Source of the DNA: Candidatus Omnitrophota bacterium | Lineage (GTDB): Bacteria; Omnitrophota; Gorgyraeia; Zapsychrales; Fredricksoniimonadaceae | Assembly (NCBI GenBank): GCA_044225175.1 | Contig: JBGAJA010000002.1 | Location: 600,991 to 664,990, forward strand | Direction: 5' to 3' | Length of the DNA: 64,000 nt | In this document: piece after piece, positions 7,060 through 45,731 of the stretch | Layout: every line of letters starts with the position of its first letter | How positions within the stretch are numbered: position 1 is the first letter of the stretch | Translations under genes and position numbers: made by a program | The notes under the pieces: model-generated | Told to the model about the DNA's origin: nothing | The model's input: only the letters and a program-made list of their open reading frames with translations | Databases searched by the model: none

Positions 7060-10000
7060 ATGATTAAACAGTTAATTGCTTCTGTAATTATTTTTACTTT
7101 TAGCTGTACATCAATTACAGTTCCGCAAGTCAGAGCTGCCCTGCCATTACAATTACCAGTTCCAGGAACAATGGTTAATTTAAGCCCAGCTTATGAGCCA
7201 GCTATTATTAAAGGTTTGACTGTTCATAAAAATAATCCCTTCCTATTTGATTTTATCGTTGATGTCGGCCAGGACAAAATGTCTGGCGAACCTCTCAAAG
7301 CAGAAGGTGAGAAGCTCATTAAGTATTTTCTCGCCAGTTTAGCTATTCCTGAAAAAGATTTATGGGTCAACTTATCTCCCTATGAAAAAGATAAAACAGT
7401 ACCTGAAGCATTAGGGCAGACGGATATGGGTCGAGACCTTTTGGCCCAAGATTATGTTCTCAAACAGATGACCGCATCATTGATCTACCCTGAAAAAGAT
7501 TTAGGTAAGAAGTTTTGGGATAAAGTCTATTCTAAAGCCCAAGCCATGTATGGCTCAGCCCAAGTGCCTGTTAATACATTTAATAAAGTATGGATTATAG
7601 CCGATAAGGCAGAAGTGTTTGAACGCAATCAAACCGCGTTTGTGGTGGGATCTCATCTCAAGGTCATGTTGGAAGAAGACTATTTGGCTATGAACAAGAA
7701 CCTGATGCCAACCAGGGGACATGTGAAAGCAAGCCAAGGGAAAACGGCTAATGCCTTAGCAAGCCAAATCATCCGCGACATCATCCTTCCCGAACTGGAA
7801 AAAGAAGTCAATACGGGTAAAAATTTCGCTAATCTCCGTCAGATCTTTAACTCAATTATTCTTTCCAGCTGGTATAAGAAAAATCTTAAAAATGCCGTCC
7901 TTAATCAAGTGTATGCCAATAAAGCCAAAATCAAAGGCATAGATTTAAATGATCCTACAGTTACAGAACAGATTTATCAGCAATATTTAAAAGCCTATAA
8001 GAAAGGTGTATTTAATTATATTAAGGAAGCCCCTTCGACTAACACTCACGGTAAGCTAGATAGCCAAACAATTCCACGCAAATATTTTTCTGGTGGTCTA
8101 TCAATACAAGGCACAGCTGCCGCTAATCCTGCGGTGGTGAGTGATCCAGCAGTGTTGGCTAATTCTTTGTCTAAAGATAGAAGCTTGGTTAGTTTTGAAA
8201 CCGGTATTAATACGGGTTTAAAGAGCATGAACGCGGCAATGGTGGTCAATATTACTCCTAAAGCTGTTCTTGAATCAGGAGTTTTAGGGGAAGGAAAGGG
8301 TTTGGATGAGAAAATTGCTTCTTTAAGATCTATTGCAGAAGTTGCTTCTGTGACTGAAGGGCATAGTCCTTTCTCAGGAGCGCGGACAGGATCACGTGCT
8401 TTTAACTATGTTGAGTCAACTTTAGGAAAATTTGAAACGAGAATTAAATTAGATTTAGAATTAAATAAATCTTCTTTAGAAAAGTCTGAACAAGAACTAT
8501 TGCAACTTATATTGGACACTTACAATAAATTATATTTACAGCATCGAATTGGATATTTTCCAAGCATTGTAGATACCCAGAGCTATATTTCTGGGTTTGC
8601 CAAAAAAGGGTCAGATGATTCATTAAAGGATGCTTTAATTGGATTGTCCGATTTCTTTGGAGGGTTTGAGCCTCGTTCTCACATTGATGAACCAACTAAT
8701 TATTCTGATTCCAGTTATTGGATATTAGTCTTGGTAGGTTCTTTATTAGTTCAAACTGGAGAATCTAAAGCAGATGATATCCAAAATCTTCTGGCAAAGA
8801 TTCTTCCGGCATCAGCTGCTCGAGCGCATGACTTTCTATCTTCGCGAGTAACTGCAAAATCTTCGTCTAAAGGGTTATCTGCAAATGAGATTCTCGATTT
8901 CATTGACTCTGATAATAAAGATGGCATTAAAAGAATATTTCAAGAACTATTCTTTTGGTTTGCTAGTGAATGGTCGAGCGAACCTGTTCCAGAGATTGTA
9001 AAGGAAGCAGCTTCTTTAAGGCAAAAATATATTGGATTAATATTAAGCGGAAGGCTCACTCTGGAGGGTATTGAAAAATTAAAAGAATATGGGCTGCTTG
9101 AAAAGATTGTTGATGGTTTAACTTTGGATTTATTTATGATCCATTTATTAGACTTTACAAAATCCGAAAATATTATGGATTTTGAAAGATTGACCCAACT
9201 GTTATCGGGTGAGGCATTAATCAATATGGGCAAATATCTGACTAGAATAACAATAGAATCAAAAGATAAAGAAGAGCCATACGTTGCTGGCCTAGAGGAA
9301 ATGAAGGACGTCTTACGCGTTCTTGCTGAGAAGAGATTTGTTAATGATGCGGGTGTGCGTGAAATGATTTTAAGAGAACTTGATGAAGAAGCTTATCTTG
9401 AATCAAAACGACGTCTAGAAGAACGTATGAGACGTGTTTTAGCAAGTCCTCTCCCTACTCATATGACAATCTATGATGGAAAAGAGTCTCAACCTAAGGA
9501 AACACATAGCATTTTCCAACCTCAAGACTTTGATCAATATAGAGATATGATTTTAAAGGGACAAGTGGATGAAGTCGTTCGTTTACTTGCTGAGGAATAT
9601 GCCATTCATCATAAGCTTGCCTTATCTAGTTTTTTTGGGGCATTTAATGAATGGAGTTTTTCAAGAAAATACGAGATTTTTGAGAAAAACGAAATGTTTC
9701 TCTGGTTTCAATTGGCTGATAAGATTCAGCAATTTTATCAAAGTAAAGGTGAGCTTTTTTATTTTGACCCGATGCATGACTCTATGGGTATCAAGAGTAT
9801 GCTTTTATTAGGTTTTACGTCCAAGATCTATGATCCTAACTGGAGAAAATTAATCACGGAGTTTTTGAATAATAAAATTAGCCCATGGAATTATAGTCAA
9901 GATTTTCGCAGGCAGTTTGCTGAAGAATTTGCAACAAGAATAAAAGAGAATTATGGGGTGTTGATGGAATCTAGGTCTCATGACGTGCTAGTAGAGAAAG

Positions 10001-10812
10001 AGGGTCTTCCAGTATTTTCTATACGTACAGCCCCTGAGGATGCTAATAACATTGTAAATATATTGCGTAAAGTTAATGCCATTTATGGTTCGGATGAGCT
10101 GGGAACAAATTTTAATGGTCTTTTAGATGCTATAGCACCATTTTATTCCACAGGTGATTCTTCTAATTCATCAGGAGGTGCCGATGAGGCAATGGTGACG
10201 GCACGCGCGTCATCAACTAAGGCAGTCAAGCCTAATTTCTTAACGGCAACTCTTCGTTTAAACAGGACGGAATTGCGTTCTACTATTCTACAAGACTTCG
10301 GATTCTCCGTTTCAGAACTTTTTGAGTTGAATCCTAGAATCAACAAAGATGATGGGTTTCTTAGAGAAGGACACTTTGTTAATATTAGGGTTAATAAGAG
10401 GACTCTAAGGCGTCTTATTAAGGCGGGGGTTGGAACATGGCAACAGCTTCAGGAAGGATCATTTCATACAAGTAGAGGTGTTCTTACAGAATTTCATGAA
10501 AATGGTGTTGCGATATCTTCTTATGAGGACTTGGTTAAAGAATTAGAGTCTTCCGACGCAGCGATGACAAAGAAAGAAGACGTTACGCGTGGGGGTATCG
10601 ACTTAAATACGTCTAGTGGTATGCAGTGGAAGATTGGCAAGGTTGGCAAAGGTGTTGAAATGGATATTGATCCTGCTATGATTCAGAAGATTCAACGGGA
10701 AGGGATTGATTGGGCGGTGCCTGTCATTTTAAGGATGACTCCAGTTGCAAGCATTTGGCCTCTGGTAGGACTGCAGGCGCCTTTCAAAGAGAAACGTTTA
10801 GCTAGAATTTAA
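7060..10812 (+). CDS. Large secreted protein (1250 aa), paralog A of a giant-protein family. It has a signal peptide, a conserved N-terminal module and a conserved C-terminal GGIDL module.
   Basis: Signal peptide MIKQLIASVIIFTFSCTSITVPQVRA. Residues about 26-350 are highly similar to the N-terminus of the 2725-aa protein at 29458 (PGTM..LS.AY.P..IKGL.VH..NP.LFDF, KLIKYFLASL.IPEKDLWVNLSPYEKD, LIYPEKDLGKKFWDKVY, NALA.QIIRDIILPELE, KIYQQYL.AYKKGVFNYIKE, IPRKYFSGG). The last roughly 70 aa are also shared. RBS AGGAGAAG. Confidence 0.7.
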   Translation: MIKQLIASVIIFTFSCTSITVPQVRAALPLQLPVPGTMVNLSPAYEPAIIKGLTVHKNNPFLFDFIVDVGQDKMSGEPLKAEGEKLIKYFLASLAIPEKDLWVNLSPYEKDKTVPEALGQTDMGRDLLAQDYVLKQMTASLIYPEKDLGKKFWDKVYSKAQAMYGSAQVPVNTFNKVWIIADKAEVFERNQTAFVVGSHLKVMLEEDYLAMNKNLMPTRGHVKASQGKTANALASQIIRDIILPELEKEVNTGKNFANLRQIFNSIILSSWYKKNLKNAVLNQVYANKAKIKGIDLNDPTVTEQIYQQYLKAYKKGVFNYIKEAPSTNTHGKLDSQTIPRKYFSGGLSIQGTAAANPAVVSDPAVLANSLSKDRSLVSFETGINTGLKSMNAAMVVNITPKAVLESGVLGEGKGLDEKIASLRSIAEVASVTEGHSPFSGARTGSRAFNYVESTLGKFETRIKLDLELNKSSLEKSEQELLQLILDTYNKLYLQHRIGYFPSIVDTQSYISGFAKKGSDDSLKDALIGLSDFFGGFEPRSHIDEPTNYSDSSYWILVLVGSLLVQTGESKADDIQNLLAKILPASAARAHDFLSSRVTAKSSSKGLSANEILDFIDSDNKDGIKRIFQELFFWFASEWSSEPVPEIVKEAASLRQKYIGLILSGRLTLEGIEKLKEYGLLEKIVDGLTLDLFMIHLLDFTKSENIMDFERLTQLLSGEALINMGKYLTRITIESKDKEEPYVAGLEEMKDVLRVLAEKRFVNDAGVREMILRELDEEAYLESKRRLEERMRRVLASPLPTHMTIYDGKESQPKETHSIFQPQDFDQYRDMILKGQVDEVVRLLAEEYAIHHKLALSSFFGAFNEWSFSRKYEIFEKNEMFLWFQLADKIQQFYQSKGELFYFDPMHDSMGIKSMLLLGFTSKIYDPNWRKLITEFLNNKISPWNYSQDFRRQFAEEFATRIKENYGVLMESRSHDVLVEKEGLPVFSIRTAPEDANNIVNILRKVNAIYGSDELGTNFNGLLDAIAPFYSTGDSSNSSGGADEAMVTARASSTKAVKPNFLTATLRLNRTELRSTILQDFGFSVSELFELNPRINKDDGFLREGHFVNIRVNKRTLRRLIKAGVGTWQQLQEGSFHTSRGVLTEFHENGVAISSYEDLVKELESSDAAMTKKEDVTRGGIDLNTSSGMQWKIGKVGKGVEMDIDPAMIQKIQREGIDWAVPVILRMTPVASIWPLVGLQAPFKEKRLARI

Positions 10813-10837
10813 ATCTTCAAAAATGTATTGATGACAA

Positions 10838-10871
10838 AAGAGAGTAATCTTAAAAAAGGTTGCTCTCTTTT
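10838..10871. terminator. Possible bidirectional hairpin between the convergent 1250-aa gene and gspD
   Basis: AAAGAGAG, a 16-nt loop, CTCTCTTT, then a T-rich tract. It abuts the gspD stop. The loop is large, so this is weak. Confidence 0.3.
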
Positions 10872-12616
10872 TATTTATTGTTAATCGAATCTTGAGTGGG
10901 ATCGGGTTTGTAGTAGCGGGTTTTTACTTCTTGTGGGACGTCGCCGGTTATGATTTTGGGAGTTAAGAAGATAACAATTTCACTTTTGACCGGATGATCA
11001 TCGCTGTTTCTAAATGCTGCACCTAGAAGAGGAATGTCACCTAAGACAGGAATACGATTAGATGTTTTGACTGTCTGGTCTTTGATGAGACCTCCAATGA
11101 TGATTGTTACTCCATCTTTAATAGTCACATTTGTTTCAGCTTGGGAAGTGTCCACAATGGGGATTTTATTTCCATTACTGGTCGTTAAAGATGTCCCTGC
11201 AGAGCTGACTTCAGGACGAATTTTCATGGTGATGAATTTATCTTGATGGATGGTTGGAGTAACATACAGTTTAACCCCGACATCGATAAAATTAACGCTT
11301 TCGGCAGTGGTAGCAGGTCCAGATGAGGGGGTAGTTGTTGTGGAGGTGACATAAGGCTGGGTGGTTCCAACGAGTATTTTAGCTTCACGGTTATTTAAAG
11401 AGGTAATGCTCGGGCTTGAGAGAATTGTTGTGTGTTGCATGGTTTGCAAAGCTTCAAGTAAAACGGTGTATCTGTCATTATCAATGGTCCCTATATTTAA
11501 GGTCCCTGAATTATTAGAAGTTGCTGGTAAGACCTTAAAATTAGAATTGAAGTCGATGAATTTCTTGTTATTCTCAGCCCTATTAATAAGGCCTTGCCAA
11601 TCAATCCCTAATTGGGTTTCTTTGTCTAAAGTTACTTGAATAATCTTGGCTTCAATAAGAACTTGAGGCTCTTTAATATCAAATGCTTTGATCAGTTTTG
11701 AAATCTCTTTGATCTTAGTTGGGGTATCAGTAACAACTATCTTATTGGTTCTTTCATCGAAACGAATACGACCCGTGTCTTTATTGAGGACTTCCGATAA
11801 TTTCTCGTTGACTGTTTTAGCTTGGGCATAAATCAATTCAAAGACTTCTGTTTGTACGGGGACATCGATCTTTTTGATCAAATTACCCATGACAGTCAAT
11901 TTTTCTGAAGAATCAATCATGACTAAGACATTAGATTTGATGTCAGCTAATATTTTTCCAGATTGGCTCTTAATCTGCATAAGGACCGCAGTAATATCAT
12001 TAACATTGGCATAATTTAAATGGACAGCCATTGTTTTAACATTGCCTCCAAATTTATACCCATATCTATCTTCAAACTCTTTAGCAGGCATGACTCTCAC
12101 AATACCTTCTTCTACTTTGTAGGCGAGATTATTTGAATCCAAAATAATTGTTAAAGCATCTCTAAGTTTGACATCTTTGAGAAAAATGGTTGCCTTCCCA
12201 CGAACATTTTGATTGGCAATAATATTTAATCCACTTTTAGATGAGAGCAATTTAAGAACATCTGAAATTTCAACATCTTTGAGTTCAAGGACATCAATCG
12301 TTTCGTTTGCAGTGATATCATCTGGCTCTGTGGGAGTGTTTTGGTCAGATGCAACATCATTAGCAGTGCTGTTTTCAGTGACTATAGAGGTTGAGGATAA
12401 CTCTTGAGGAGCATAGGCTGTAGAATTTCTTAAAACACCCTCTAGATTGTCGGAAACTGTTTCTCGATACTCGTTTACAGGCGCATTGAATTCATCTAGA
12501 GCATCAGTGATGATAGCATTTCTTTGGGAAGACATTTTTTCTTGAGCAAGACAAAGAGAAACTGTAGTGCCAAAAAGAAAAATACTGGTCATAAATATTA
12601 ATGTTTTTTTTGTCAT
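10871..12616 (-). CDS. gspD: Secretin GspD/PilQ family (outer-membrane channel of the T2SS / type IV filament system)
   Basis: Signal peptide, N-domains, and the C-terminal secretin domain (IEAKIIQVTLDKETQLGIDWQGL, TIIIGGLIKDQTVKTSNRIPVLGDIPLLGAAFRNSD...VIFLTPKII). Confidence 0.9.
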   Translation of the reverse strand: MTKKTLIFMTSIFLFGTTVSLCLAQEKMSSQRNAIITDALDEFNAPVNEYRETVSDNLEGVLRNSTAYAPQELSSTSIVTENSTANDVASDQNTPTEPDDITANETIDVLELKDVEISDVLKLLSSKSGLNIIANQNVRGKATIFLKDVKLRDALTIILDSNNLAYKVEEGIVRVMPAKEFEDRYGYKFGGNVKTMAVHLNYANVNDITAVLMQIKSQSGKILADIKSNVLVMIDSSEKLTVMGNLIKKIDVPVQTEVFELIYAQAKTVNEKLSEVLNKDTGRIRFDERTNKIVVTDTPTKIKEISKLIKAFDIKEPQVLIEAKIIQVTLDKETQLGIDWQGLINRAENNKKFIDFNSNFKVLPATSNNSGTLNIGTIDNDRYTVLLEALQTMQHTTILSSPSITSLNNREAKILVGTTQPYVTSTTTTPSSGPATTAESVNFIDVGVKLYVTPTIHQDKFITMKIRPEVSSAGTSLTTSNGNKIPIVDTSQAETNVTIKDGVTIIIGGLIKDQTVKTSNRIPVLGDIPLLGAAFRNSDDHPVKSEIVIFLTPKIITGDVPQEVKTRYYKPDPTQDSINNK

Positions 12617-13122
12617 GATTTTTCTATAGGTAATTCGACTTTTTGACCTTCATGTTCAAAGATAATTTTATTTTTTTGGATTTCCATTAAATTCAAGTCG
12701 TTCAGCTTGTCTCCTATGGATAAGATTTGGGTATTGCCTGCGCTTACATTTTGAATAATGACAGTCGGACTCTTGGATAACATCACTCCAAGCACTTTGA
12801 AATTCTTTAAATCCATCTTGGCAGAATTGCTGGGCGTAGCATTGGGATCGATGGTTTTCTTTTCTTTAGGTAGCTGAAAAAGACTTTGTCCTCGCATTAT
12901 TTGAGAGTATTCAGAAAAATGGGTAGTCGTGGGCAGGAGCTTTTCTAGAGAGTAAGCATTCTTAGAATCCATAGATTCTTGATGAAGTACAGGAATTTCC
13001 TTTTGGATCAAAACAATCCTCACAAGTATGTATGCCGCAAGACATGCAGAGATAAGGGCAAAGAATTTGCTAAGAGTATTTAAAGTTTGATTATTTAAAA
13101 GATTAATTTTTCCTAAGATCAT
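12613..13122 (-). CDS. GspC / PilP-like protein (single TM plus an HR-type periplasmic domain, no PDZ)
   Basis: N-terminal TM helix. The C-terminal domain FKVLGVMLSKSPTVIIQNVSAGNTQILSIGDKLNDLNLMEIQKNKIIFEHEGQKVEL matches the PilP/GspC-HR fold pattern. It overlaps the secretin start, consistent with a shared operon. Confidence 0.5.
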   Translation of the reverse strand: MILGKINLLNNQTLNTLSKFFALISACLAAYILVRIVLIQKEIPVLHQESMDSKNAYSLEKLLPTTTHFSEYSQIMRGQSLFQLPKEKKTIDPNATPSNSAKMDLKNFKVLGVMLSKSPTVIIQNVSAGNTQILSIGDKLNDLNLMEIQKNKIIFEHEGQKVELPIEKS

Positions 13123-13215
13123 ATATATTCTCTTGAGTACAACCTAATCTGACACAAATAAAAAAAGGTGTCAATTGGATATTGAGGTTTCTTTATTCTT
13201 AATTTAAGAAAAATA

Positions 13216-13749
13216 CTATTTAATTAAAGATTTGGTCAAGATGAGCTTACTTAGTAAGTTTGAGTCGGAAGAAGGGGCTTTGGTGATTTGAAATTCATTG
13301 ACTGTATATAGATGAGGGCAGTTTTGTAATGTGGATAGAAAATCCATAATATTATTAAGGGTTCCTTGCACAGAAACCTCAATTGTAAAATCACTTCCAA
13401 CGGGAGTTGTTTTAGATTTTAATGGATCAGAAGCGGTGCTCTGTAGATGATTGTCTTTTGCAATTCCCTCAATCTCTTTTTTTATTAAGGTCAATTGTTC
13501 TTTGTCTGAAACAGACTGGTTAAAGCAGTCCATTGCTTCAGAATAATTTTGCTGGTAAGGCTGGCTTTTAGAAATAGTTTGGACTGCTTTGTTAAACTCT
13601 TTTTCAAGGGTCAGAATTTTGTCTTGAGTTGTTTCCTCGCTATCTTTTAAAGGTACATATATTCCACGATAGGCAGTGAAAATCAATAAGGCTATACAAC
13701 TTATAACAAAAATTCTTTTTTCGCGTTCTGTAGAAATTATTTTTCTCAT
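13216..13749 (-). CDS. GspM / PilO-like bitopic inner-membrane protein
   Basis: N-terminal TM (VISCIALLIFTAY), then a coiled coil, then a periplasmic domain of about 100 aa. It lies between the gspL-like gene and the gspC/pilP-like gene. Confidence 0.45.
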   Translation of the reverse strand: MRKIISTEREKRIFVISCIALLIFTAYRGIYVPLKDSEETTQDKILTLEKEFNKAVQTISKSQPYQQNYSEAMDCFNQSVSDKEQLTLIKKEIEGIAKDNHLQSTASDPLKSKTTPVGSDFTIEVSVQGTLNNIMDFLSTLQNCPHLYTVNEFQITKAPSSDSNLLSKLILTKSLIK

Positions 13750-15191
13750 TGTTTTGATGGATTCGTTTGAGCAAGAATTACAAAATCTAAGTATCCCTGA
13801 TTGTTATATTGTTGAGAATTCTTTTTTTGAAGAGTTACACTCTTTACCCATGTCAAATTCTGAATTCTTTTTTGAAATGAAGATAAAATATTCTGATTAC
13901 CAGCTATTCCATCTATGCGCAATGTGAGATCTTGATCAAAGCTTATTTGACGAAAATAAATTTCGGAAGGAGTAGCTTGATAGATGTCGCGCAGAATATC
14001 TGTCAAAGGAACCTGTGGATGGCTGATAGATTGAATCTTACGAATGTTATCCAGTTTTTTCTCTTCTTCTTTGGATTTCTCTTGGATTGCATCTATTCTT
14101 TTTTCAAGGCTTTGGAGATAAACATACTTTTGATAAGTTTCAAAACGGAGGGCAAAGACAATCAAAGCTAATAGAACACTTAGACTTAAAAGAAATTTGA
14201 GAAGATGGTTAATGGCAAATTGAGGTTCATTAGAGTTTTGTGCGACCCGTGGGACTAAATCAATTTGATGCTCTGTGCCTGCATTAACAAAGCCCCAAGC
14301 ACCTATCAAAGATACCATAGAATAATTTTTGATCAGAGAAAGAACTTGGAGTTCACATGGAATTTTTTCAGATGGTCTAATGATTTCAACGGGAATATTA
14401 AATCGCTCCACGATTCCTTTGCTCAAAGTTTCTATCTGAGTAAAATCAGTTGCTATGAAGATCTTTTCTATGTTGAGGGCTGGAAATTCGTTCTGATAGG
14501 CTTTGAGCGTCAATTCTACCTGATTGAGCATATCACTCAGATCGTCTTTTCTTAAATCACTCAATCCAGCGTTAAAATTACGTGAAAATAGAAATTTCCC
14601 TTCGTAATAGAAGCATAATTCCGCATCATCATAATCTAAGTTTAGAATTCCAAGAGGATTCTTCTCTTCTGTAAATTGACTAAACCATCCAGCAATTCCA
14701 AAGGAACTAATAAAAACATTAGAAACAGTTAATCCTGCTCCTTCTAAGGGTTTAAGGCATGCTGAAATTTGTTCGATAGGACTGATTGCTGAAAGGACTT
14801 TAGTGTAGCCGTCTGGTAATTTTTCAAGAATATAGTGATCGTAGACAATTTCTTCTTGCGTAAAGGGAACTTGTTGAAGAATTTTCAAAGAAAGCATCTT
14901 GTGTATTTCTTGTTCATCCTGCGAAGGCATTGAGAACTGCTTTAAAATTACATAGCGCTTTGGAATCACGACAATAGTGTTTTTAACTTTGATGCTAACT
15001 TGAGATAGAAGATTGATCACCTGCTGTTCGGTACGATTTGAAGTTTCAATAATATCAAGGTTGCTAAGAAAAGGTTTGCCCTTTTGCATTTTGATCTGCA
15101 GGACCTTTAGGTAGGTATTAGTTACTTCAATAATTGTTCGGTTTTCTTTGATCATCTTAATTTCTTTGCCAATGCAAAAGCGATAATTCAT
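13746..15191 (-). CDS. gspL: GspL-type assembly-platform protein: a cytoplasmic actin-like (PilM-like) domain fused through one TM helix to a PilN-like periplasmic domain
   Basis: A roughly 320-aa actin/FtsA-like N-domain, then the TM helix FLLSLSVLLALIVFAL, then a coiled coil and a periplasmic domain. It sits directly after gspK, as in canonical T2SS operons. Confidence 0.65.
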   Translation of the reverse strand: MNYRFCIGKEIKMIKENRTIIEVTNTYLKVLQIKMQKGKPFLSNLDIIETSNRTEQQVINLLSQVSIKVKNTIVVIPKRYVILKQFSMPSQDEQEIHKMLSLKILQQVPFTQEEIVYDHYILEKLPDGYTKVLSAISPIEQISACLKPLEGAGLTVSNVFISSFGIAGWFSQFTEEKNPLGILNLDYDDAELCFYYEGKFLFSRNFNAGLSDLRKDDLSDMLNQVELTLKAYQNEFPALNIEKIFIATDFTQIETLSKGIVERFNIPVEIIRPSEKIPCELQVLSLIKNYSMVSLIGAWGFVNAGTEHQIDLVPRVAQNSNEPQFAINHLLKFLLSLSVLLALIVFALRFETYQKYVYLQSLEKRIDAIQEKSKEEEKKLDNIRKIQSISHPQVPLTDILRDIYQATPSEIYFRQISFDQDLTLRIDGIAGNQNILSSFQKRIQNLTWVKSVTLQKKNSQQYNNQGYLDFVILAQTNPSKQ

Positions 15192-16825: not shown

Positions 16826-16833
16826 ACTTTGGA

Positions 16834-18129: not shown

Positions 18130-18153
18130 TTCTGCCCCCTTAAGATGATATTT

Positions 18154-21098: not shown

Positions 21099-21147
21099 AG
21101 AATAAAGGATTTTAATTTACAATTTTGTATAATGATTACTTGAATTC

Positions 21148-29457: not shown

Positions 29458-32400
29458 ATGAAAAAATCGGTATGTTTGATTATTCTTCTGTGCTTTTTAG
29501 TTACAGGCATTGCGGGGCCTCGCTCTACTTTTGCCAGTGACATTCCTCAATTACCTCTTCCAGGAACTATGATGTCTTTGAGCCAGGCCTATATGCCTGT
29601 CATGATCAAAGGCCTGAAAGTCCATCCAGAGAATCCTTTGTTATTTGATTTCGTCGTGGATACAGGGAATTCTGGATTGTCCGTAGGGGCAGGGCTCGCC
29701 CCTGCCCAAAAAGGGCGACCGCAAGGGTCACCCCTACAAGACGAATCAAACAAATTAATCAAATATTTCCTAGCCTCATTAACTATCCCCGAAAAAGACC
29801 TCTGGGTGAATTTATCCCCCTATGAGAAAGACAGAATAGTTCCTGAAGAACTAGGGAACACCGAGCTAGGCCGAGACATGCTGGCCCAAGATTACATCCT
29901 CAAACAATTAACCGCTTCTCTAATTTATCCTGAGAAAGACCTAGGCAAGAAATTCTGGGACAAGGTTTATGCGAAGGCCCAAGCACTTTATGGCAATACG
30001 CAAATACCTGTGAATACATTCAACAAGGTATGGATCGTAGCTGATAAAGCCAAGGTTCTTGAGAGGAACAATGTGGGGTATATCGTTGGAGCGCATTTGA
30101 AGGTGATGTTGGAGGAAGATTATCTAGCTAATGAAAAAAATCAAACGCCAACCAGGGGACATGTTCATTACAAAACCAATAAGAACGTGTCCCCAAGCAT
30201 GCTGCCAAGCGAGACAGCGCTGAATGCGAAAGCACCCCAGGGAAACACCCCCAACGCCTTAGCAAACCAAATCATCCGCGACATCATATTGCCCGAATTA
30301 GAAAACGAGGTCAACCAAGGCCAAAACTTCGCCCCCTTGCGCCAAATGTTCTATTCCATGATCCTAGCCACATGGTACAAACAAACCCTAAAGAATGCCT
30401 TATTAAATCAAGTGTATAGCAATAAAGCCAAGATAGAAGGCGTCAAGAATGATGATCCTATTATCAAAGAAAAGATCTATCAGCAATACCTTAGTGCTTA
30501 CAAAAAAGGCGTATTCAATTACATCAAGGAAGATCTAGATTCAACCCCAGGCCAGAGAATTCCCAGAAAGTATTTTTCAGGCGGAATGATAATGGGTATC
30601 GAGAAAGTCTTGGATCGCACGCAGACAGAAACACCTCATGAACTAACAAGTCTGAAGACTGGGGACATGGCTATGGTCCAAGTTCTTATCAATAAATCTT
30701 CGGATTCTAGCAAAACTCCTGAACCAGTCTTGGCAGAGAATCCAATCATAAAGAAGCTGCTCGATTTACAAGAACAAGGAAAAAAATGGGAATTGATTTC
30801 AAATCCGCAATATGACGGGTGGATTGTTTATAAAGCAGGAAGTTTTTTTATTCATGTTCCTTCTAAAGAGGGAGCGCTTGAATACAGTCAGCAACAGGTC
30901 ATTGAGAATGCAGATTTTGTTTTGGCAAATGCTGGTAATACATTTGTTCCTACAACAAAAATTAACTTGAAACAAATGTCATTTCAAACACAGGTAGGTG
31001 AATATATAAAACCTGGCATTGTCTATATACAAAATGGTGTAGAACCATTGTTTAGTTTAAAAGGACAAAAGATAGGGCAAAGAATCATTAATCGAGGACT
31101 TTTATTCAGATTGGCAAAACAAGAAAGGTGGAAAAAGATTGCCCAAATCCTACAGAGCGCTATGACAACTACGCAACATATGTGGTCAAGAGGAATATTT
31201 GTCGAGGATACGACCGTTCTTGTTAATATGGGCATACCTAAAGGCGATTCGAATGCCATCTATTTTGATTTGGGAAATTTTTCTTCCAAAGTTCCTCCGG
31301 ACAAGGTTTTATTAAAGGTTCTTCAGGATTTACGTGCCGAGATACGAGCTACCGTAAAATTGCTTGATTTGCCTTTATCGTCAAAAGAAGTTGTTCTTTC
31401 AAATCTTAAGAAACAATTTTCTATAAGTAATTTCAGAAACACTTGGCAAAGTAAGATGCACGAACGCTCCAGAGTTGCTGATGCAGCCATGAATACTTGG
31501 CCAGAATATTTATATGCTGAAGAAAGAGCCCGTGAGATAGCACAAGGCGTAAAACAATTGACTCCAAATGAAATGAGCAGTCTTTATCAAATTATCGTAA
31601 GCCTCAGAATGCTACCTGAAGAATTAATTTCACAAACATTTGAGGAAGGTAAAAGGGTCGTTTTTCTTGGGATTCCCACTGCAAAAGGAGAAACCTATCT
31701 TGCTCGCCTGTTTAAAGCATTAAAGAATGAAAAATTCAAACCGACTCATTTAGCTTTACCTTTTGCTGAGAGGGATCGTGACAAATTAAATCGATTTATT
31801 GAAGGTCAGATTTCGGCCAGTGAATGGGGAATTAATTTGAATGGTGTTCATGAAAAAGATCTCGAATCTTTGCGAGTTCTACTTCACGGGATTAAAGATG
31901 ATGTGAAATTTGTTTTGTATGCTGATGAGGGTAGTCATAGTGGAGAATTAAAAGCTGATCAAGAAGCAAAGAACATTCTCAATGTTATTAATCTGGATAA
32001 GTCAGCACGGCTGTTAGTTGTAGGTAATTATGATCGGGTGGCGAAAGAGAATGTAGGTGGATCTCAATTATCTATACGCCGTATTGTTTCACAAAATATG
32101 GGTAGTGATCATATTTCTTCTATTGTCACGTCACATGGAGAAGATATGGAATCTTACTCATTGATAGGGATAAATAATTTCTTTGATATTTTCGAAAGGC
32201 ATTCTATTCCTATTAGCTTTGCTTTTCCAATTGCCAAAACTCCTTTGGAAGGACTGTCTTTTGATCAAGATTATCCACAAAGTACTTACGGTTTATTTGA
32301 TGGTTTCATTTATTTCAAAGATTCTGATGAGGATGGAGAAGGTTTCTTTGATAAGAAACCTGATGAACCTATTTTAGCAGACCATCCTACAGGCAGTGGT

Positions 32401-35400
32401 GACAGAAGAAGAGCAACGGTTGCTGCTACGAGCCCCGCCATGACCTCCAAGCCTAATATAGCTATCACTGTTCCTGGTAATGATACCGTTCTAACTCAAG
32501 AATTTTATGAAGGTTTAGATGATGCTGTTACGCAGATGGAAGAGTTTATAAAATTACAACAACCTGCTCAAATTATTTGTTTAGGCGGATCCCCTGAATG
32601 GATTTTTAGAGCTCTTGAAGTTAAAACTCAATTTCAAAATCCGAATCAGTATGCAGATCTAAGACGAAAAATTAAATATGTCGCCTTTAGTAGACCTGAA
32701 GGTGGCGTTTTTTATTACTCACAAAAAGAAGTAGATGCGTACCGCACATATTTAAAGAAATTAGGTATTACTCCCAGGAAAATTATTAATAGGGATAAGC
32801 CAACTATAATTGTTGATAAAAGTGAGTCAGGTGAAAGTTTAAGGGTTTTTATAAGAATTTTAGAAAAGTGGGCAGAAGATGTAAATATTAGCTCTTCTGA
32901 ATTAGGATTGAAATTGGGACTGAGAATTTTGAGTGATCATAGACTAATATCTAAAAATGGAGTTATTAGACTTTTTAATCCTTGGAATGATATTCCAGAA
33001 ATATATCTCACAACTCTTGACTCCGGAGGGTTAGCTAGTGTTCAGATTATTGCTCGGCCAATCAATAATACGATAGACAGAAGTGAAACAAATGATCTGG
33101 GAAGATTTGTGCCCAGGTATTCGCGCGACCAATGGGTATCAAGTCGACCGATTCCTTTGGCAAAAGATATTGATAACGCTAAAAGAACGATTGAAAAGAT
33201 TGTTACGTATTACCAGGATAAATTATCATCAGCTCCAGTAGCGAACAATTCAGACCCTCGTAAGGAAGAAGGTCCTATTTCTGAGAATTTAAGACTTTTA
33301 GCAATTAACCGTCTTTTGCCAGCAGCTATTACGGATTTTGATGAACGGCTTAAAATTATTAAATACATCATTGCAACGTTTAAAGATCAATGGGAAGAGG
33401 CTATTTCTCTTTTAGGTCATCATTTAATGGATTCTAAAGAGTGGGAGATGATTGATCGAGCATTAAGACATGGATTGCCCTTAGTAACGATTGCGGAATG
33501 GGCCCATTATAGTTTGAATGATGGGAAGATCACCTTCAGATCTTTTCCAATTGAATTTCAAAATAAAATTTTTGAAGAAAGTAAATCTAGTCGTGGCATT
33601 ACTCGTCTTGAATTACAAGATTTGTGGATGATTTATAGTTGTTTGATGAAAGTAGTAAAAGCAAAAGAACAGGAAGGTCAAATTGAACAGAAGGCGGCAG
33701 AAGATTTTTATGCTCGTATGCCGGTCTTCAAATCCGTTCCTGAATTTGAGGCATATGCTTCCGCAGATTATCGAGCTCGTTATGAAAGAGCTGCAAAAGA
33801 TTTGTTGGCAGAGCAAGGGTTAAAACAAATCACATTTCATTCTTTAGTGCTGATGATCAAGGGGTTGTCTTTTAATAGGCATATGCCGCGTGGTAATTAC
33901 CTTTCAGTTGTGATTCATGACAATAACGGTTTTAAACCGGTTCAATTGAATGACTTCTTATGGGAAGGACCAATTGCTATTGATCAAGTGGGATTTTTTA
34001 CCAAAGATCTTGGGAAAGGAATTGAGGGTAAAAAGGAGAGCTTGAGCATTGAAGTTACTGGTGGAGATTTAAAGAAAGTATTAAAAGGACATCTTTTTGA
34101 CGATGAAGAAATTAGACCTTTGTTAGGATCAATTGAATTTCAACGAGATCCGCGAGATTTATCAAAAGCTAAAATTTATTGGATCCAAGCTTGGCTAAGA
34201 CAAAGTGATCGTCTAACTCCCGAGGTAAGAGCTAAATTAGGTTCTATTGAAGAAATGGTTTTAAAAGCCTTTCATGCCTACGCGAAACAAAATGGTATTA
34301 AGACTATTCAATATAGAACAGGAAGCAGGTTCTTTAGAGATGTTCCCTTGGTTGCACGTCAGACCGTCAACCGTGTGAATAAATTATTTCAAAATAATGG
34401 ATATCGTCTCGTTTTTGATGAGAAAAAGAAGGAATGGTTTTGGCAGATTGAAATTAATGCCGCTATGATCACCACGTCCACTGCTAAAAAGACGGTTTCG
34501 ACTATATCTGACCAGGAGTTTTTTGATAGGGCTTTAAAGATATTAGATCAAGGGATTGATAAAAGTCGTAAATTAGTAACAAAGATTACGGATGATTATC
34601 AATCAACTAAACAATCACCAACCAGGCGTCTTGAACAATTGACTTTATCGCTTAGTCTTTTGCGACACAACTTAGCAAATTATGAATTTTTTGATGTTTT
34701 CGGCAGCATATTAATGAAAGAGCTTTATGCGCGTAAAAAAAGTGATGGGTTTGAATATTCCATCGATCAAATTCATACTCCTATCGATGCAAATGGAAGA
34801 CATGAAGCGGCCCTTTCAAATTTATTTGATCTCAAGGAGAAGATGTCAGAGAAAGGAGCTGTCATCAACATCGATCATTTCAGACAACAACTTAATTTAA
34901 TTTTTCAATCTTATTTTATGACACTGTTGGCAGAACTATCTCTTAGGGCCTTAGATGGAGATGTCTCCTATAATCTTAATCAATTGCAGAGAGTTCTAAA
35001 CAAGATTCAAGAAGGTAGTGGAAGCGTATTTATCAAAGATGCCAGGACCTTATGGACAATTGCAACTTCGCCCGTTGTTGTTGAAGAAAGAGCTTCTCAG
35101 GCGTATGAAATTTTTAGTCGACGCATTTATAGCGATAAAGTCTCCCGCAATGATCGTATAGCTCATGCCATTATCAATGTGAAGGCCAATGGCATCCATC
35201 TTTTTCAAGTGATAGGCAGGCTTTCTCTAGCATCTGCGGATAAAGAAAAAGCTCAATCGCAAATTGATTTTAATAGTGTCGATTTTCAGTTGTTAGTTAA
35301 GGGTTTGGCGGTGTTGATGCCCCGTTACGAAGAAATTTTGAAGTTAGAAGAGAGAGGACCTTTATTGGAAGACATTAGAAAAGAAAAAGAAGACATAGTT

Positions 35401-37635
35401 GAGGCGCTGATATTTGCTTTGGGTGGTTTGAGGTTTTTTTGGGAATTTGGGGGCAATTTGGAGCTTATTCTTAACTCCTTACCAGCGAATTTAAAACAAT
35501 TGAAGGAGACTTTGTCTTACTTTGGCCGTTTGGCAGATCCTCTGATGAAAGATATAAAAAATTTGGATTTAAGTAAATCTATTTATTCACCTATCCAACA
35601 TACCAATATTTTACCGCACCGTACGTTGAACGCTTTATTTACTTCTGCTTTCAACCAGGTAGGAACAGAAAAGCCTCTGCGTTTGTTTAGCTATGAAGAG
35701 CTAATGCGTTCCTCCTCAGGGCTAGAAGGACAAGAAAAGCTTAATTTATATGAATTATTTAGAAGGAACGATGGTAAGGGTAGACTAGAAAATTTTCTAA
35801 CAATAACTAAGGGAATTTACCAAGAAGTTCAACATGATTTGGTAGTGTTAAGGGATCATGGAATGTTAGTTAAGCAAGATTCAAATTTTCCTTATATATT
35901 TAAACCTGAAGATATAGAAAAAGTCAGACAAGTACAGACAGGACTGTCAAAGTTGTTCGCAAGGAAGTCTTCTACAAATATTTTTACTGAGGGAAATTAT
36001 CGTTATGAATTGGTAAGCTTTGATGATCGTTTGGCGTTATCCAAGGATTCTGGAAAAGAATATCCTCCCTCAGTGAGCGTTCTTGTCTATGACAAAGACA
36101 GCAATGCGCCTATCTACACAGCTCATGTAATGTGGCAAAGACCCAAGCTGACGCAAGATCAATCGCTTGAGCCTGTTTGGATGGAGTATCATCCTAAGGG
36201 TGGCATCCCTGAAGGTATTGACACTAAAATGATTTATGGATCGTTCTCCCGTTTAAGCCAAAAACCTGAAATGTCTTTTTTCTTTGTGAATGGTCAACAA
36301 CGGGACAATATGAGTTTTCAACGATACTTTAGTCGTTTTAATACGTTGTATCTCTTCCAAAGGCATGTCAACAGTACGAGGCCGATTCTAGATGTGGTAT
36401 TGGATACGATGAATCAACTTCAAATTCCATATTCTCAAGAAACATTAGTCAAAGATATAAACTTCATTTCAAAAATCCTAGCAAGATATTTGGATTGGTC
36501 TGAATTAATGTACATTAATACAACGTTATCTGTGATTAAAGCTTATCAGATAAAGAAAGGTTTACGCAGTTTAGAGGAGGCAACTAATGTTCTAAGGGCG
36601 ATGATCAAGGATGAAGATTTGTTAGGATCTATAGAGGATATAAGCCTTGAGTTAAATAAGGGGAATAAAGATCCTTATAAGATATCGAGTCCCAAGAATC
36701 TCATTTATTATCTGACAGGAAAAGGACCTCTTTTCTTGGATAAAGCATTTCAATTACGTGAAGCTTTAAGAAAAGCATATCCAGATTTAAGTGTATTAAG
36801 AAGGGAAGTTGCTGGGAAAAATAGTTTAGAAGAGTCGGAAATATTAGGACAAAAGGTCACTGTCGATGGAAAGGTTGATGAAAGATACACGGCGCGAAGT
36901 GTTGAGAAATTATTTTATTATCTTGGGAAGGAATCCTATTTTCTTGAGAGGGCAGTTGAGCTACGTGAAGCTTTAAGAACAGCATATCCAGATCTAGAGT
37001 CATTGCGAGAGGCTTTGAGGGATAAAAGGGGTTTAGAAGCAGCTGAAATCCTAAGAGGGAAGCTGATCAAGGATAGAGTAGTCGATCATAGATATACACC
37101 TGTAGGTGTTGAACAATTACTGCATTATCTTTTTGGAAGAAATGTCCGTTTTTTAAATAGCGCCCTTGAACTGCGTGAAGCTTTAAGAAAGAAATATCCG
37201 ACATTAGAAGATCTTATCGGTTCTCTCATTGATGACCGAGGGCAAGAGTTTTCAAAAAGGGAAGTCCACTCATTATGGCTCCGTTCTATGCAAAAGGGAG
37301 TGTCTAAAGGAAATTTCAAAACCAATGCTGATGCTCTATGGGATGAACTGCGTAAATTATTCAATGCAAGAAAAAAAGCTGCAAGCGGCTCTACTCCTGC
37401 CATGATTTCCAACAAGCCCGATGAAACAATGCTTAGAAAAACTCCTGGTGGTATTGATTTAGACGCTAAGAATATGGGGTTAGATATTATGAAAGAAGGC
37501 AATGGTATTAAGATATCATTCGATCCTGTTTTAATTGCAGAATTCGAAAGGGGTGATTTTTCAGGGGTCATCCCAATTATTATTAATATTACCCCTCTTT
37601 CTAGTCCTTTGACTTTGTTAGGGTTGAGTCCATAA
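29458..37635 (+). CDS. Giant secreted protein (2725 aa), paralog B of the family. It has a signal peptide, the conserved N-terminal module, a long mostly alpha-helical unique core, three tandem repeats of about 72 aa, and the conserved C-terminal GGIDL module.
   Basis: Signal peptide MKKSVCLIILLCFLVTGIAGPRSTFA. The N-terminal roughly 380 aa are co-linear with the 7060 gene, with two insertions. The C-terminus TPGGIDLDAKNMGLDI...FDPVLIAEFERGDFSGVIPIIINITPLSSPLTLLGLSP parallels RGGIDLNTSSGMQWKI...IDPAMIQKIQREGIDWAVPVILRMTPVASIWPLVGL. Confidence 0.75.
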   Translation: MKKSVCLIILLCFLVTGIAGPRSTFASDIPQLPLPGTMMSLSQAYMPVMIKGLKVHPENPLLFDFVVDTGNSGLSVGAGLAPAQKGRPQGSPLQDESNKLIKYFLASLTIPEKDLWVNLSPYEKDRIVPEELGNTELGRDMLAQDYILKQLTASLIYPEKDLGKKFWDKVYAKAQALYGNTQIPVNTFNKVWIVADKAKVLERNNVGYIVGAHLKVMLEEDYLANEKNQTPTRGHVHYKTNKNVSPSMLPSETALNAKAPQGNTPNALANQIIRDIILPELENEVNQGQNFAPLRQMFYSMILATWYKQTLKNALLNQVYSNKAKIEGVKNDDPIIKEKIYQQYLSAYKKGVFNYIKEDLDSTPGQRIPRKYFSGGMIMGIEKVLDRTQTETPHELTSLKTGDMAMVQVLINKSSDSSKTPEPVLAENPIIKKLLDLQEQGKKWELISNPQYDGWIVYKAGSFFIHVPSKEGALEYSQQQVIENADFVLANAGNTFVPTTKINLKQMSFQTQVGEYIKPGIVYIQNGVEPLFSLKGQKIGQRIINRGLLFRLAKQERWKKIAQILQSAMTTTQHMWSRGIFVEDTTVLVNMGIPKGDSNAIYFDLGNFSSKVPPDKVLLKVLQDLRAEIRATVKLLDLPLSSKEVVLSNLKKQFSISNFRNTWQSKMHERSRVADAAMNTWPEYLYAEERAREIAQGVKQLTPNEMSSLYQIIVSLRMLPEELISQTFEEGKRVVFLGIPTAKGETYLARLFKALKNEKFKPTHLALPFAERDRDKLNRFIEGQISASEWGINLNGVHEKDLESLRVLLHGIKDDVKFVLYADEGSHSGELKADQEAKNILNVINLDKSARLLVVGNYDRVAKENVGGSQLSIRRIVSQNMGSDHISSIVTSHGEDMESYSLIGINNFFDIFERHSIPISFAFPIAKTPLEGLSFDQDYPQSTYGLFDGFIYFKDSDEDGEGFFDKKPDEPILADHPTGSGDRRRATVAATSPAMTSKPNIAITVPGNDTVLTQEFYEGLDDAVTQMEEFIKLQQPAQIICLGGSPEWIFRALEVKTQFQNPNQYADLRRKIKYVAFSRPEGGVFYYSQKEVDAYRTYLKKLGITPRKIINRDKPTIIVDKSESGESLRVFIRILEKWAEDVNISSSELGLKLGLRILSDHRLISKNGVIRLFNPWNDIPEIYLTTLDSGGLASVQIIARPINNTIDRSETNDLGRFVPRYSRDQWVSSRPIPLAKDIDNAKRTIEKIVTYYQDKLSSAPVANNSDPRKEEGPISENLRLLAINRLLPAAITDFDERLKIIKYIIATFKDQWEEAISLLGHHLMDSKEWEMIDRALRHGLPLVTIAEWAHYSLNDGKITFRSFPIEFQNKIFEESKSSRGITRLELQDLWMIYSCLMKVVKAKEQEGQIEQKAAEDFYARMPVFKSVPEFEAYASADYRARYERAAKDLLAEQGLKQITFHSLVLMIKGLSFNRHMPRGNYLSVVIHDNNGFKPVQLNDFLWEGPIAIDQVGFFTKDLGKGIEGKKESLSIEVTGGDLKKVLKGHLFDDEEIRPLLGSIEFQRDPRDLSKAKIYWIQAWLRQSDRLTPEVRAKLGSIEEMVLKAFHAYAKQNGIKTIQYRTGSRFFRDVPLVARQTVNRVNKLFQNNGYRLVFDEKKKEWFWQIEINAAMITTSTAKKTVSTISDQEFFDRALKILDQGIDKSRKLVTKITDDYQSTKQSPTRRLEQLTLSLSLLRHNLANYEFFDVFGSILMKELYARKKSDGFEYSIDQIHTPIDANGRHEAALSNLFDLKEKMSEKGAVINIDHFRQQLNLIFQSYFMTLLAELSLRALDGDVSYNLNQLQRVLNKIQEGSGSVFIKDARTLWTIATSPVVVEERASQAYEIFSRRIYSDKVSRNDRIAHAIINVKANGIHLFQVIGRLSLASADKEKAQSQIDFNSVDFQLLVKGLAVLMPRYEEILKLEERGPLLEDIRKEKEDIVEALIFALGGLRFFWEFGGNLELILNSLPANLKQLKETLSYFGRLADPLMKDIKNLDLSKSIYSPIQHTNILPHRTLNALFTSAFNQVGTEKPLRLFSYEELMRSSSGLEGQEKLNLYELFRRNDGKGRLENFLTITKGIYQEVQHDLVVLRDHGMLVKQDSNFPYIFKPEDIEKVRQVQTGLSKLFARKSSTNIFTEGNYRYELVSFDDRLALSKDSGKEYPPSVSVLVYDKDSNAPIYTAHVMWQRPKLTQDQSLEPVWMEYHPKGGIPEGIDTKMIYGSFSRLSQKPEMSFFFVNGQQRDNMSFQRYFSRFNTLYLFQRHVNSTRPILDVVLDTMNQLQIPYSQETLVKDINFISKILARYLDWSELMYINTTLSVIKAYQIKKGLRSLEEATNVLRAMIKDEDLLGSIEDISLELNKGNKDPYKISSPKNLIYYLTGKGPLFLDKAFQLREALRKAYPDLSVLRREVAGKNSLEESEILGQKVTVDGKVDERYTARSVEKLFYYLGKESYFLERAVELREALRTAYPDLESLREALRDKRGLEAAEILRGKLIKDRVVDHRYTPVGVEQLLHYLFGRNVRFLNSALELREALRKKYPTLEDLIGSLIDDRGQEFSKREVHSLWLRSMQKGVSKGNFKTNADALWDELRKLFNARKKAASGSTPAMISNKPDETMLRKTPGGIDLDAKNMGLDIMKEGNGIKISFDPVLIAEFERGDFSGVIPIIINITPLSSPLTLLGLSP
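36682..37275 (+). repeat. Three tandem in-frame repeats of about 215 nt (about 72 aa) inside the giant gene
   Basis: Repeated L.YYL.G...FL..A.ELREALR.AYPDL..LR.....G.E..EIL..K...D..VD.RYT units. The nucleotide cores CGTGAAGCTTTAAGAA(A/C)AGCATATCCAGAT are nearly identical. Confidence 0.6.
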
Positions 37636-43100: not shown

Positions 43101-43181
43101 TACTTTCAATATTTTTATTTGACAAACGCTAAGGCACCGGGTATAGTTGCGTCGTAGTAAATAAAGCGCAGAAGAGTCTTA

Positions 43182-43221
43182 AACCCGTAAAGTTAAGAAT
43201 CATGGCTTTACGGTTTTTTTG
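43182..43221 (+). terminator. Rho-independent terminator after pheA
   Basis: AACCCGTAAAG, a loop, CTTTACGGTT, then TTTTTTG. Confidence 0.6.
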
Positions 43222-43271
43222 TTTTGCCGTTATTTACTTACAATGTATAGGAAAAGGAGGTAGTAAATAAT

Positions 43272-43472: not shown

Positions 43473-43492
43473 GCTTTGAAAATCCAATCCAA

Positions 43493-45717: not shown

Positions 45718-45731
45718 TCTAAGGAAAAAAC

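Follow-up and report, generated by a model that had tools for sequence, protein, structure and literature searches.

Constant ends, a replaceable core and a recurrent [DN]xAM motif in a family of predicted exported proteins from Omnitrophota

The DNA considered here, 64,000 nt from a Candidatus Omnitrophota bacterium (GenBank assembly GCA_044225175.1, contig JBGAJA010000002.1, positions 600,991 to 664,990, forward strand), referred to in the following as the window, encodes two giant proteins on either side of an operon for a secretion machine. An earlier reading made from the letters alone (the sequence-only reading) had proposed that these proteins share an N-terminal and a C-terminal module around unrelated middles. 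The question raised by the locus is what kind of protein keeps both ends constant while its middle is exchanged, and what the ends are for. Our analysis leads with high confidence to an architecture consisting of a signal peptide, a head module, a replaceable core and a tail module, in which the units of the core are bounded by a short motif, [DN]xAM. What this architecture serves is a more difficult question, and several explanations are weighed below against the evidence that bears on them.

The head, the tail and what lies between them

The two open reading frames (ORFs) were found as originally delimited: ORF A, on the + strand at 7060–10812, encodes 1250 aa and is identical to database protein P0121, and ORF B, also on the + strand at 29458–37635, encodes 2725 aa and is identical to P0152. 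When the two proteins were compared by BLASTP, residues 2–347 of A aligned with residues 1–377 of B at 61% identity (236/385, E 5e-143), and residues 1166–1238 of A aligned with residues 2655–2723 of B at 36% identity (E 9e-9). No further significant alignment was found outside these two regions, and the cores, of 829 aa in A and 2287 aa in B, are therefore considered to be unrelated, in agreement with the original proposal of shared ends and unrelated middles. The predicted signal peptides were likewise confirmed. In both proteins, residues 1–26 (7060–7137 in A, 29458–29535 in B) follow the n/h/c pattern, with a positively charged n-region containing Lys, a hydrophobic h-region and an AxA-type site, with predicted cuts at VRA/A in A and TFA/S in B. 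Past the signal peptide, neither sequence was read as containing a hydrophobic segment or transmembrane (TM) helix. The whole proteins had no match in Pfam (E ≤ 0.1), NCBIfam (E ≤ 1) or PHROGs, and neither head nor tail was found in any other ORF of the window.

The head module, residues 27–346 of A (7138–8097) and 27–376 of B (29536–30585), the latter with two insertions relative to A, comprises about 320–350 aa. In an alignment of 40 diverse members, 50 of its columns are invariant, including the stretches WVNLSP.E and …F(N/D)KVWI…, and a closing …Y.SGG, mostly PRKYFSGG, which in A is represented by the invariant RKYFSGG. Ser and Lys are present among the invariant columns (Ser81, Lys110, Lys151, Lys248 and Ser319 in the numbering of the alignment); His and Cys are not. 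An AlphaFold2 model of the head (predicted local distance difference test, pLDDT, 72; predicted template modeling score, pTM, 0.70) was mostly confident and showed an alpha/beta, mainly helical protein with two beta-hairpins and at least seven long helices. A search of PDB sequences with the head profile at E ≤ 10 returned Huntingtin as the sole match, at E 0.067, which we treated as chance, and the best Foldseek hit had an E-value of 0.31. By these tests, the modeled fold appears unlike any solved structure. Similarity to the peptidase families S26, S41 and S50 was not detectable by Pfam or by the PDB profile search.

The tail module, residues 1178–1250 of A (10591–10809; GGIDLN … DPAM … PVILRMTPVASIWPLVGL …) and 2664–2725 of B (37447–37632), comprises about 65 aa with the consensus GGIDLN-x(18-20)-(F/I)DPAM(I/V)-x(14)-PVI-x-(R/N)I(T/V)P-x-x-S-x-x-P(L/I)(L/V)GL. 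There are at least two subtypes, type 1, ending …SIWPLVGLQAP… as in A (…SIWPLVGL…), and type 2, ending …SPLPLLGL…, to which B belongs (…SPLTLLGL). The AlphaFold2 model of the tail alone had low confidence (pLDDT 64, pTM 0.29) and showed only a hairpin and a helix. Such behavior would be in keeping with folding against a partner. For head and tail alike, the suspicion that neither is a described domain held up, no match having been found in Pfam, NCBIfam or the PDB.

If a local duplication had recently given rise to the two proteins, followed by loss or replacement of the middle, there should be no wider family. Only the presence of two copies less than 30 kb apart in the window speaks for such an origin. 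The sequence-only reading had suggested a family of modular exoproteins, and the family proved to be very large. With the head of A as query, 1322 proteins were found at E ≤ 0.001. The best 120 of these were 53–81% identical to the query, and those with names were all annotated as "hypothetical protein" from Candidatus Omnitrophota or Omnitrophica, with the exception of two obvious mislabelings. When one genome per GTDB species was scanned, at least 589 head-bearing loci were detected. All locus-level counts given here refer to the best 80 of these, which were all within Omnitrophota-type metagenome-assembled genomes (MAGs), with several loci per genome and many in tandem. The tail, searched exhaustively by HMMER with a profile made from five sequences, was found in 4334 representatives of 50% identity clusters at E ≤ 0.001, and in 794 at E ≤ 1e-10. 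The heads of A and B are just 61% and their tails 36% identical, and the head of A is closer, at 75–79% identity, to proteins from other genomes than it is to B. A local duplication is excluded by that closer relationship and by the thousands of relatives. A and B are paralogous members of a large, Omnitrophota-specific family, one from each tail subtype.

The same arrangement recurred throughout the family. In all 150 of the best tail matches listed, A and B among them, the tail was the extreme C-terminus. Of the 69 ORFs that have a head and a stop codon inside their locus, 62 had the tail no more than 49 aa from that codon. For four of the remaining seven, a tail-bearing ORF just downstream in a different frame suggests a frameshift. 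An n/h/c pattern with an AxA-like site was present in 131 of 133 complete N-termini; export of the family through Sec is supported by these predictions. Member lengths at these loci span about 680 to over 3700 aa; the short member P0004 has 565 aa, with a linker of 140 aa between head and tail. Tandem head-to-tail arrays of two or three genes were observed at L071:2211-13024 and at loci L019, L023, L041, L044, L051 and L076; each gene in them is complete, with a signal peptide, a head, an unrelated core and a tail.

The middle of the proteins behaves quite differently from the ends. Among 102 full-length members, cores matched solely where the heads were at least 90% identical. In the 106 ordered pairs with heads 80–90% identical, the mean core coverage was 0.003, i.e., the cores were essentially unalignable, so that the pattern first noticed in two proteins, constant ends and an exchangeable middle, holds for the family as a whole. 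Head identity was correlated with tail identity (r = 0.73), and the heads were 62.6% identical within a tail type versus 55.6% between types. Because of this correlation, and because the head subtypes track the tail subtypes, head and tail travel together; as judged from these sequences, the two are passed on as a matched pair, and it is the core that is replaced in its entirety. When compared with 5.8e9 proteins, the cores of A and B each found only themselves, within the sensitivity of a word-indexed search. Against the PDB at E ≤ 1, the core of A gave a single match, ASA4, at E 0.045, again treated as chance, and the core of B gave none.

Two proteins were observed that have a tail without a head. 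One is encoded at L078:7441-9036 (+), where the N-terminus is hydrophobic and pilin-like (AFTIIELVIVISVLA) and the gene adjoins two true pseudopilin genes and a gene for an OprB porin. The other, P0237, has a plain signal or TM segment that is followed directly by DRAM. As far as gene structure tells, the tail evidently does not need a head in order to function. A link between tail and pilins, considered because of the pilin-like N-terminus at L078, was dropped when that protein gave no match to Pfam N_methyl.

The [DN]xAM motif and the units that it bounds

The most over-represented dipeptide in the cores of the family was AM, with 268 occurrences compared to 122 expected (z = 13). It occurs in the context [A/S/P/T]-[D/N]-x-A-M-[T/A/V]-[S/T/A], beyond which the flanks are not conserved. 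The core of this pattern, [DN]xAM, was present 423 times in 110 cores, compared to 26.6 ± 4.9 in shuffled sequences, with an enrichment of about 40-fold for the Met and about 13-fold for the Asp. Family cores thus have about 3.3 copies per 1000 aa, whereas the corresponding rates were 0.06 for the remaining ORFs of the window and 0.16 for ORFs of the 80 loci that do not belong to the family; the motif was accordingly rejected as a feature of the proteome at large. An origin at the DNA level, either as a recombination site or as an internal ribosome binding site and start codon, was also rejected. The third-codon (synonymous) positions in the motif vary freely and there is no purine-rich, Shine–Dalgarno-like signal upstream, from which we conclude that the motif is selected at the protein level.

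The motif has preferred positions. In about 75 of the 110 members the first copy was found within 50 aa after the head, often as two or three copies in tandem, and in about 58 the last copy was found within 40 aa before the tail; with the fourth position relaxed, the latter applied to 119 of 135 tails. The core of A contains three motifs (0.11 expected, P 5e-4). The first, NAAM at 8230–8241 (residues 391–394), is 45 aa past the head, a placement typical of the family. It is followed by cargo unit 1 (8242–10182, residues 395–1041), DEAM (10183–10194, residues 1042–1045), cargo unit 2 (10195–10554, residues 1046–1165) and finally DAAM (10555–10566, residues 1166–1169), 8 aa ahead of the tail. 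Both units are orphans, and unit 1 has no match in Pfam or the PDB. In addition, the tail consensus contains a copy of the motif of its own, DPAM, which in A is found at residues 1204–1207 (10669–10680), while B reads DPVL at that position. This DPAM starts the sole helix of the low-confidence tail model.

The core of B also has three strict motifs (0.24 expected), and five with the relaxed pattern (0.64 expected). They are DMAM at 30664–30675 (residues 403–406), 27 aa past the head; DAAM at 31480–31491 (residues 675–678); the relaxed SPAM at 32431–32442 (residues 992–995); NAAM at 34456–34467 (residues 1667–1670); and the relaxed TPAM at 37393–37404 (residues 2646–2649), 14 aa ahead of the tail. 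The last cargo unit before the tail includes three tandem repeats of about 70 aa each at 36691–37287 (residues 2412–2610), which are 53% and 51% identical to each other (E 1e-18 and 5e-10). The repeats have the pattern …L.YL.G…FL..A.ELREALR..YP.L..L…, and the region gave a weak, below-threshold match to Pfam EAD1.

Between the head and NAAM391, residues 348–390 of A (8101–8229; …AAANPAVVSDPAVLANSL.KDRSLV…) align to relatives that read NPAM…DPAM…DRAM. From the relatives' residues at the matching positions, A appears to have lost the Met from three tandem copies of the motif after the head, NAAM391 alone remaining.

The units bounded by the motif number from one to more than 15 per member and are self-contained. 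The cores of 33 relatives searched against Pfam contained PGI, PGM/PMM, aldehyde dehydrogenase, isocitrate lyase, malate synthase, adenylate kinase, transaldolase, hexokinase and GHMP kinase, as well as HEAT and HTH domains. Judged by their domain content, the cargo of the relatives often consists of complete metabolic enzymes of a cytoplasmic type, and several of the strings join functionally linked enzymes, much as an operon does. In selected relatives, we compared the spans of the Pfam matches with the positions of the motifs. In P0241, the hexokinase (826–1241) lies between motifs at 811 and 1252, and an aldose 1-epimerase (2572–2884) between motifs at 2514 and 2887. The galactokinase of P0185 (1610–2036) is similarly placed between motifs at 1587 and 2080. 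In P0197, DKAM1136 falls between PGI (617–1097) and PGM (from 1161), and in P0264, which also has PGI followed by PGM, DKAM479 falls between the two. Malate synthase and isocitrate lyase, in that order, are separated by DAAM1061 in P0149. Wherever it was mapped, the motif thus brackets or separates whole enzymes, as these are delimited by the Pfam models, and in the hexokinase the Met of the motif coincides with the start of the Pfam model. Neither the punctuation by [DN]xAM nor the enzyme cargo of the relatives had been recognized in the sequence-only reading.

These results could also be viewed in terms of uncleaved envelope scaffolds, in which head and tail would anchor both ends of the protein in the outer membrane, the peptidoglycan or a surface coat, and [DN]xAM would be a mere linker or helix cap between domains exposed at the surface. 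Surface "coat" giant proteins have been reported for Omnitrophota. The tail, which is hydrophobic and strand-like, has no confident fold when modeled alone, as would be the case for a segment docking on a partner, and the motif at the start of the helix in the tail model is what one might expect of a helix cap. Moreover, the long members (>3.7 kaa, ending at the edge of their locus) that have WD40 propellers or AAA_5 domains have few motifs. However, a pure linker is unlikely to be as sequence-specific as the Met and Asp enrichments indicate when its flanks are not conserved, or to be placed exactly between complete enzymes of unrelated folds, and kinases, PGI/PGM and enzymes of the glyoxylate shunt have no obvious substrates at the cell surface. 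We consider a scaffold function unlikely.

Exported carrier polyproteins as a possible explanation

Taken together, the observations seem best explained if the members of the family were exported carrier polyproteins, a reading that we hold to be evenly balanced between right and wrong. According to this model, [DN]xAM would be a site of proteolytic processing, the simplest cut being between A and M, so that the released units would start with Met. One export signal and one pair of head and tail would serve to deliver several independent proteins beyond the cytoplasm, an operon in the form of a polyprotein. The head and tail would be common handling modules, involved in routing after Sec, in docking or in processing. 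At least some of the cargo would be bound for the cytoplasm of another cell, either host or prey. The neighboring T2SS may or may not provide the step across the outer membrane.

A short motif with Ala before the cut is not without precedent. Ala at P1 together with a fixed P3 residue is typical of peptidases with a Ser–Lys dyad, such as signal peptidase I, the S41 peptidase CtpA acting on pre-D1, and birnavirus VP4. Because its invariant residues include Ser and Lys and neither His nor Cys, the head could itself be the protease, and the idea that it is a processing enzyme of the Ser–Lys type is offered here as speculation from the alignment. The polyproteins processed by such enzymes (birnavirus VP4, S50; CtpA, S41, with pre-D1) resemble the present family in having …D-x-A at a cut between functional proteins; they differ in that no such peptidase was identified in the family proteins or their neighborhoods.

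As the destination of at least some of the cargo, another cell seems likeliest, because the cargo of the relatives includes enzymes that depend on ATP and sugar phosphates. The same enzymes could be taken to mean that the proteins never leave the cytoplasm and are arrays tethered to the membrane by an uncleaved N-terminal anchor, with the enzymes serving the metabolism of the cell itself. Enzymes of central metabolism that need ATP and phosphorylated sugars would then be where their substrates are, and many long proteins of Omnitrophota have been read as membrane-anchored with their domains in the cytoplasm (10.64898/2026.06.07.730766). Against this stand the canonical signal peptides of 131 of the 133 N-termini, with Lys or Arg in the n-region, an h-region of about 12–15 residues and an AxA site. 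A positively charged n-region predicts that most of the chain lies outside the cytoplasm. One type of cargo is also encoded by a separate, free-standing gene whose product carries a signal peptide of its own, described in the next section. Tethering in the cytoplasm is thus very unlikely. Delivery of carrier-polyprotein cargo to another cell would fit the host-dependent or predatory lifestyle that has been proposed for Omnitrophota. In its fullest form, with Sec-exported strings of enzymes cut between the A and M of [DN]xAM by an unrecognized protease and delivered into host or prey, where they would rewire metabolism, we put the proposal forward only tentatively and regard it as doubtful.

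A number of points weigh against the carrier polyprotein explanation. Cleavage at the motif is deduced from the motif statistics and the boundaries of the units. A protease domain was not recognizable in the head, the tail or any conserved neighbor by Pfam, NCBIfam and clustering of the flanking ORFs. The predicted model of the tail is of low confidence, and the cargo units of A and B themselves are orphans. The strict motif is absent from 14 of the 110 members, and the very long members have few copies. The motif could alternatively be a helix N-cap, a linker or a docking site, as the model of the tail, with its helix beginning at DPAM, might suggest. Finally, the export of ATP-dependent kinases is hard to rationalize without a delivery step.

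Among known systems, two appear by analogy to be closest in working logic. The MARTX toxins, such as RtxA of Vibrio, have conserved N- and C-terminal regions around variable effectors, which are cut out at short processing sites and released inside another cell. The present family resembles them in its constant ends and in the variable, self-contained cassettes that differ among close relatives. This is an architectural analogy only, with no relationship in sequence or fold. In A and B, Pfam detected neither RTX or glycine-rich repeats nor a Peptidase_C80 domain (C80 was absent also among the families found in the 33 relatives), and the family has a Sec signal peptide, whereas MARTX toxins use type I secretion. 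Cleavage and delivery, moreover, are only deduced for the family, and the cargo of the relatives is made up of metabolic enzymes rather than recognized toxins. In the polymorphic toxins, the toxic part follows a short boundary motif, VENN in the case of CdiA-CT and PxxxxDPxGL in the case of Rhs. They share with the family a constant delivery part, a payload in the form of cassettes, the boundary motif and the presence of many paralogs per genome. However, the variable part in the family is internal, with both ends constant and the C-terminus conserved; A and B have no two-partner secretion (TPS), filamentous hemagglutinin (FHA) or YD repeat matches in Pfam; the payloads are not recognizable toxins; and a conserved small downstream gene resembling an immunity gene was not found at the 80 loci.

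Other secretion systems are more distant. Cargo of the type IX secretion system (T9SS) likewise combines a Sec signal with a C-terminal module, the C-terminal domain (CTD) of about 70–100 aa, on otherwise unrelated proteins; the family tail, in contrast, matched neither Por_Secre_tail nor the TIGR CTD models in Pfam and NCBIfam and gave no confident beta-sandwich, and the family has a 330-aa head in addition and belongs to another phylum. The tail, at about 65 aa, is too short for an autotransporter (type V) barrel of at least 250 aa, and the head, which would correspond to the N-terminal barrel of the inverse type, is predicted to be mainly helical. Unlike the signals recognized by exosortase or rhombosortase, which pair a short motif with a TM helix and a basic C-terminal cluster, the tail has no TM helix but contains prolines and charged residues, and the NCBIfam models for sorting signals gave no match.

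Within the phylum itself, giant proteins named "Archaeovorins" have been described, with genes of at least 25 kb, many TM helices, SecA-like regions and C39 or S8 peptidase domains (10.1101/2023.11.21.568195; 10.64898/2026.06.07.730766). Apart from the phylum, they have in common with the present family signal peptides, cores with HEAT, PGM, PMM and methyltransferase domains, a suggested proteolytic subdivision and T2SS-like genes that are sometimes adjacent, and HEAT and PGM content was shared by some of the 33 family relatives. In contrast, the genes for A and B are only 3.75 and 8.2 kb, with no Pfam domains and no TM helices past the signal peptide. The Archaeovorin papers make no mention of the family head, the tail or [DN]xAM. 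No description of the family was found in the literature on Omnitrophota that we searched (polyproteins, hexokinase with a signal peptide, protein family, Velamenicoccus proteome). The family, its head and tail, and the [DN]xAM motif thus appear to be new.

Omnitrophota are widespread, uncultured and ultra-small bacteria that are probably host-dependent, and the family is a sizeable part of their small genomes, with ten or so genes of 1–4 kaa in some MAGs. If the motif is a cleavage site, entire metabolic enzymes would here be expressed by bacteria as polyproteins outside the cytoplasm, for which there are few examples. A sequence rule combining signal peptide, head, [DN]xAM and tail would then list exported cargo across the phylum; it would also yield concrete predictions for metaproteomics and have a bearing on how the larger giant proteins of the phylum are organized. 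If the delivery reading is also true, this would be a new bacterial system of protein delivery and processing without homology to known families of secretion substrates. Should the motif prove to have some other role than cleavage, the two end modules would still be well suited to being defined as new domain families.

The surroundings of the two genes

Between A and B, on the − strand at 10871–21098, is the T2SS operon that had been reported as complete, and Pfam matches bore this out: the genes encode a secretin, a GspB-like protein, PilO, a PilM–PilN fusion, GspK, pseudopilins, GspH, GspG, GspF and GspE. The PilM–PilN fusion (13746–15191, −, 481 aa) takes the position of GspL and the PilO-like protein (13216–13749, −) that of GspM, and by this gene content the machine is a hybrid of a T2SS and type IV pili (T4P).

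From the position of the two genes on either side of this operon, it was also suggested that the conserved ends may serve targeting, anchoring or secretion recognition. Under a scheme of the last kind, the proteins would be dedicated type II secretion substrates, recognized through the head, the tail or both by the adjacent Gsp machine and functioning as intact extracellular exoproteins. In its favor, a complete T2SS-like operon is flanked by A and B, the family has the Sec signal peptides that T2SS substrates require, and pseudopilin genes are found beside family genes in two related loci, L071 and L078. T2SS-like loci have also been described upstream of giant genes in Omnitrophota (West-Roberts et al. 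2023, 10.1101/2023.11.21.568195).

The search for homologs of the window's GspD, GspE, GspF and GspG covered 10 kb around each of the 80 related loci (a length of 15 kb or more was available for 38). They were found at 1, 1, 0 and 2 loci, respectively, i.e., near about 4 of 80, even though the conservation of GspE and GspF is sufficient for homologs to be recognized. No conserved partner emerged when the flanking ORFs of the 80 loci were clustered; the commonest neighbors were generic (histidine kinases and response regulators, ABC-F, GGDEF, TPR and ROK proteins), each at no more than 11 loci. In the window itself, the operon and A converge, the operon's end facing A, and three unrelated genes separate B from the operon's start. 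Type II secretion would also leave both the punctuation by the motif and the cytoplasm-type enzymes in the cargo unexplained. The bracketing of the operon is real in the window but does not characterize the family; the operon seems to be next to these genes by coincidence, and the suggested link was not supported by the comparison. We think it improbable that these proteins are dedicated substrates of the adjacent machine.

The three genes between the operon and B encode a large protein with Ig and PKD domains, a 508-aa protein with no Pfam match, and a type I dehydroquinase. The first (21373–26223, +, 1616 aa), divergent from the T2SS operon, contains Ig, PKD and Flg_new (InlB B-repeat) domains. 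It has neither [DN]xAM nor the head or tail, and looks like an adhesin.

The second (26626–28152, +) is the free-standing protein, with a signal peptide of its own, referred to above. Its residues 17–508, which make up the entire mature protein, align with residues 421–895 of the family protein L041:3617-7513 from another genome at 30% identity (E 7e-63), making it a homolog of a cargo unit found elsewhere. It had no match in Pfam, PHROG or the PDB. Sequence motifs such as GENAW and STENN hint at a putative enzyme resembling the (alpha/alpha)-barrel glycosidases.

The remainder of the window is ordinary chromosome on both sides. Genes for SMC, CvpA, DnaG and RpoD are found upstream, and those for RNase H, YebC, RuvC/RuvA, ScpB, the biosynthesis of aromatic amino acids, LepA and a TolC-like/ABC-2 exporter downstream. 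The genes for the aromatic amino acids are split. The type I dehydroquinase (28701–29387, +) is directly upstream of ORF B, and chorismate mutase/prephenate dehydratase, an aminotransferase, DAHP synthase and prephenate dehydrogenase follow at 42039–46604 (+), about 4.4 kb past its end. Because genes of this pathway flank it on both sides, ORF B may be located within an older housekeeping block.

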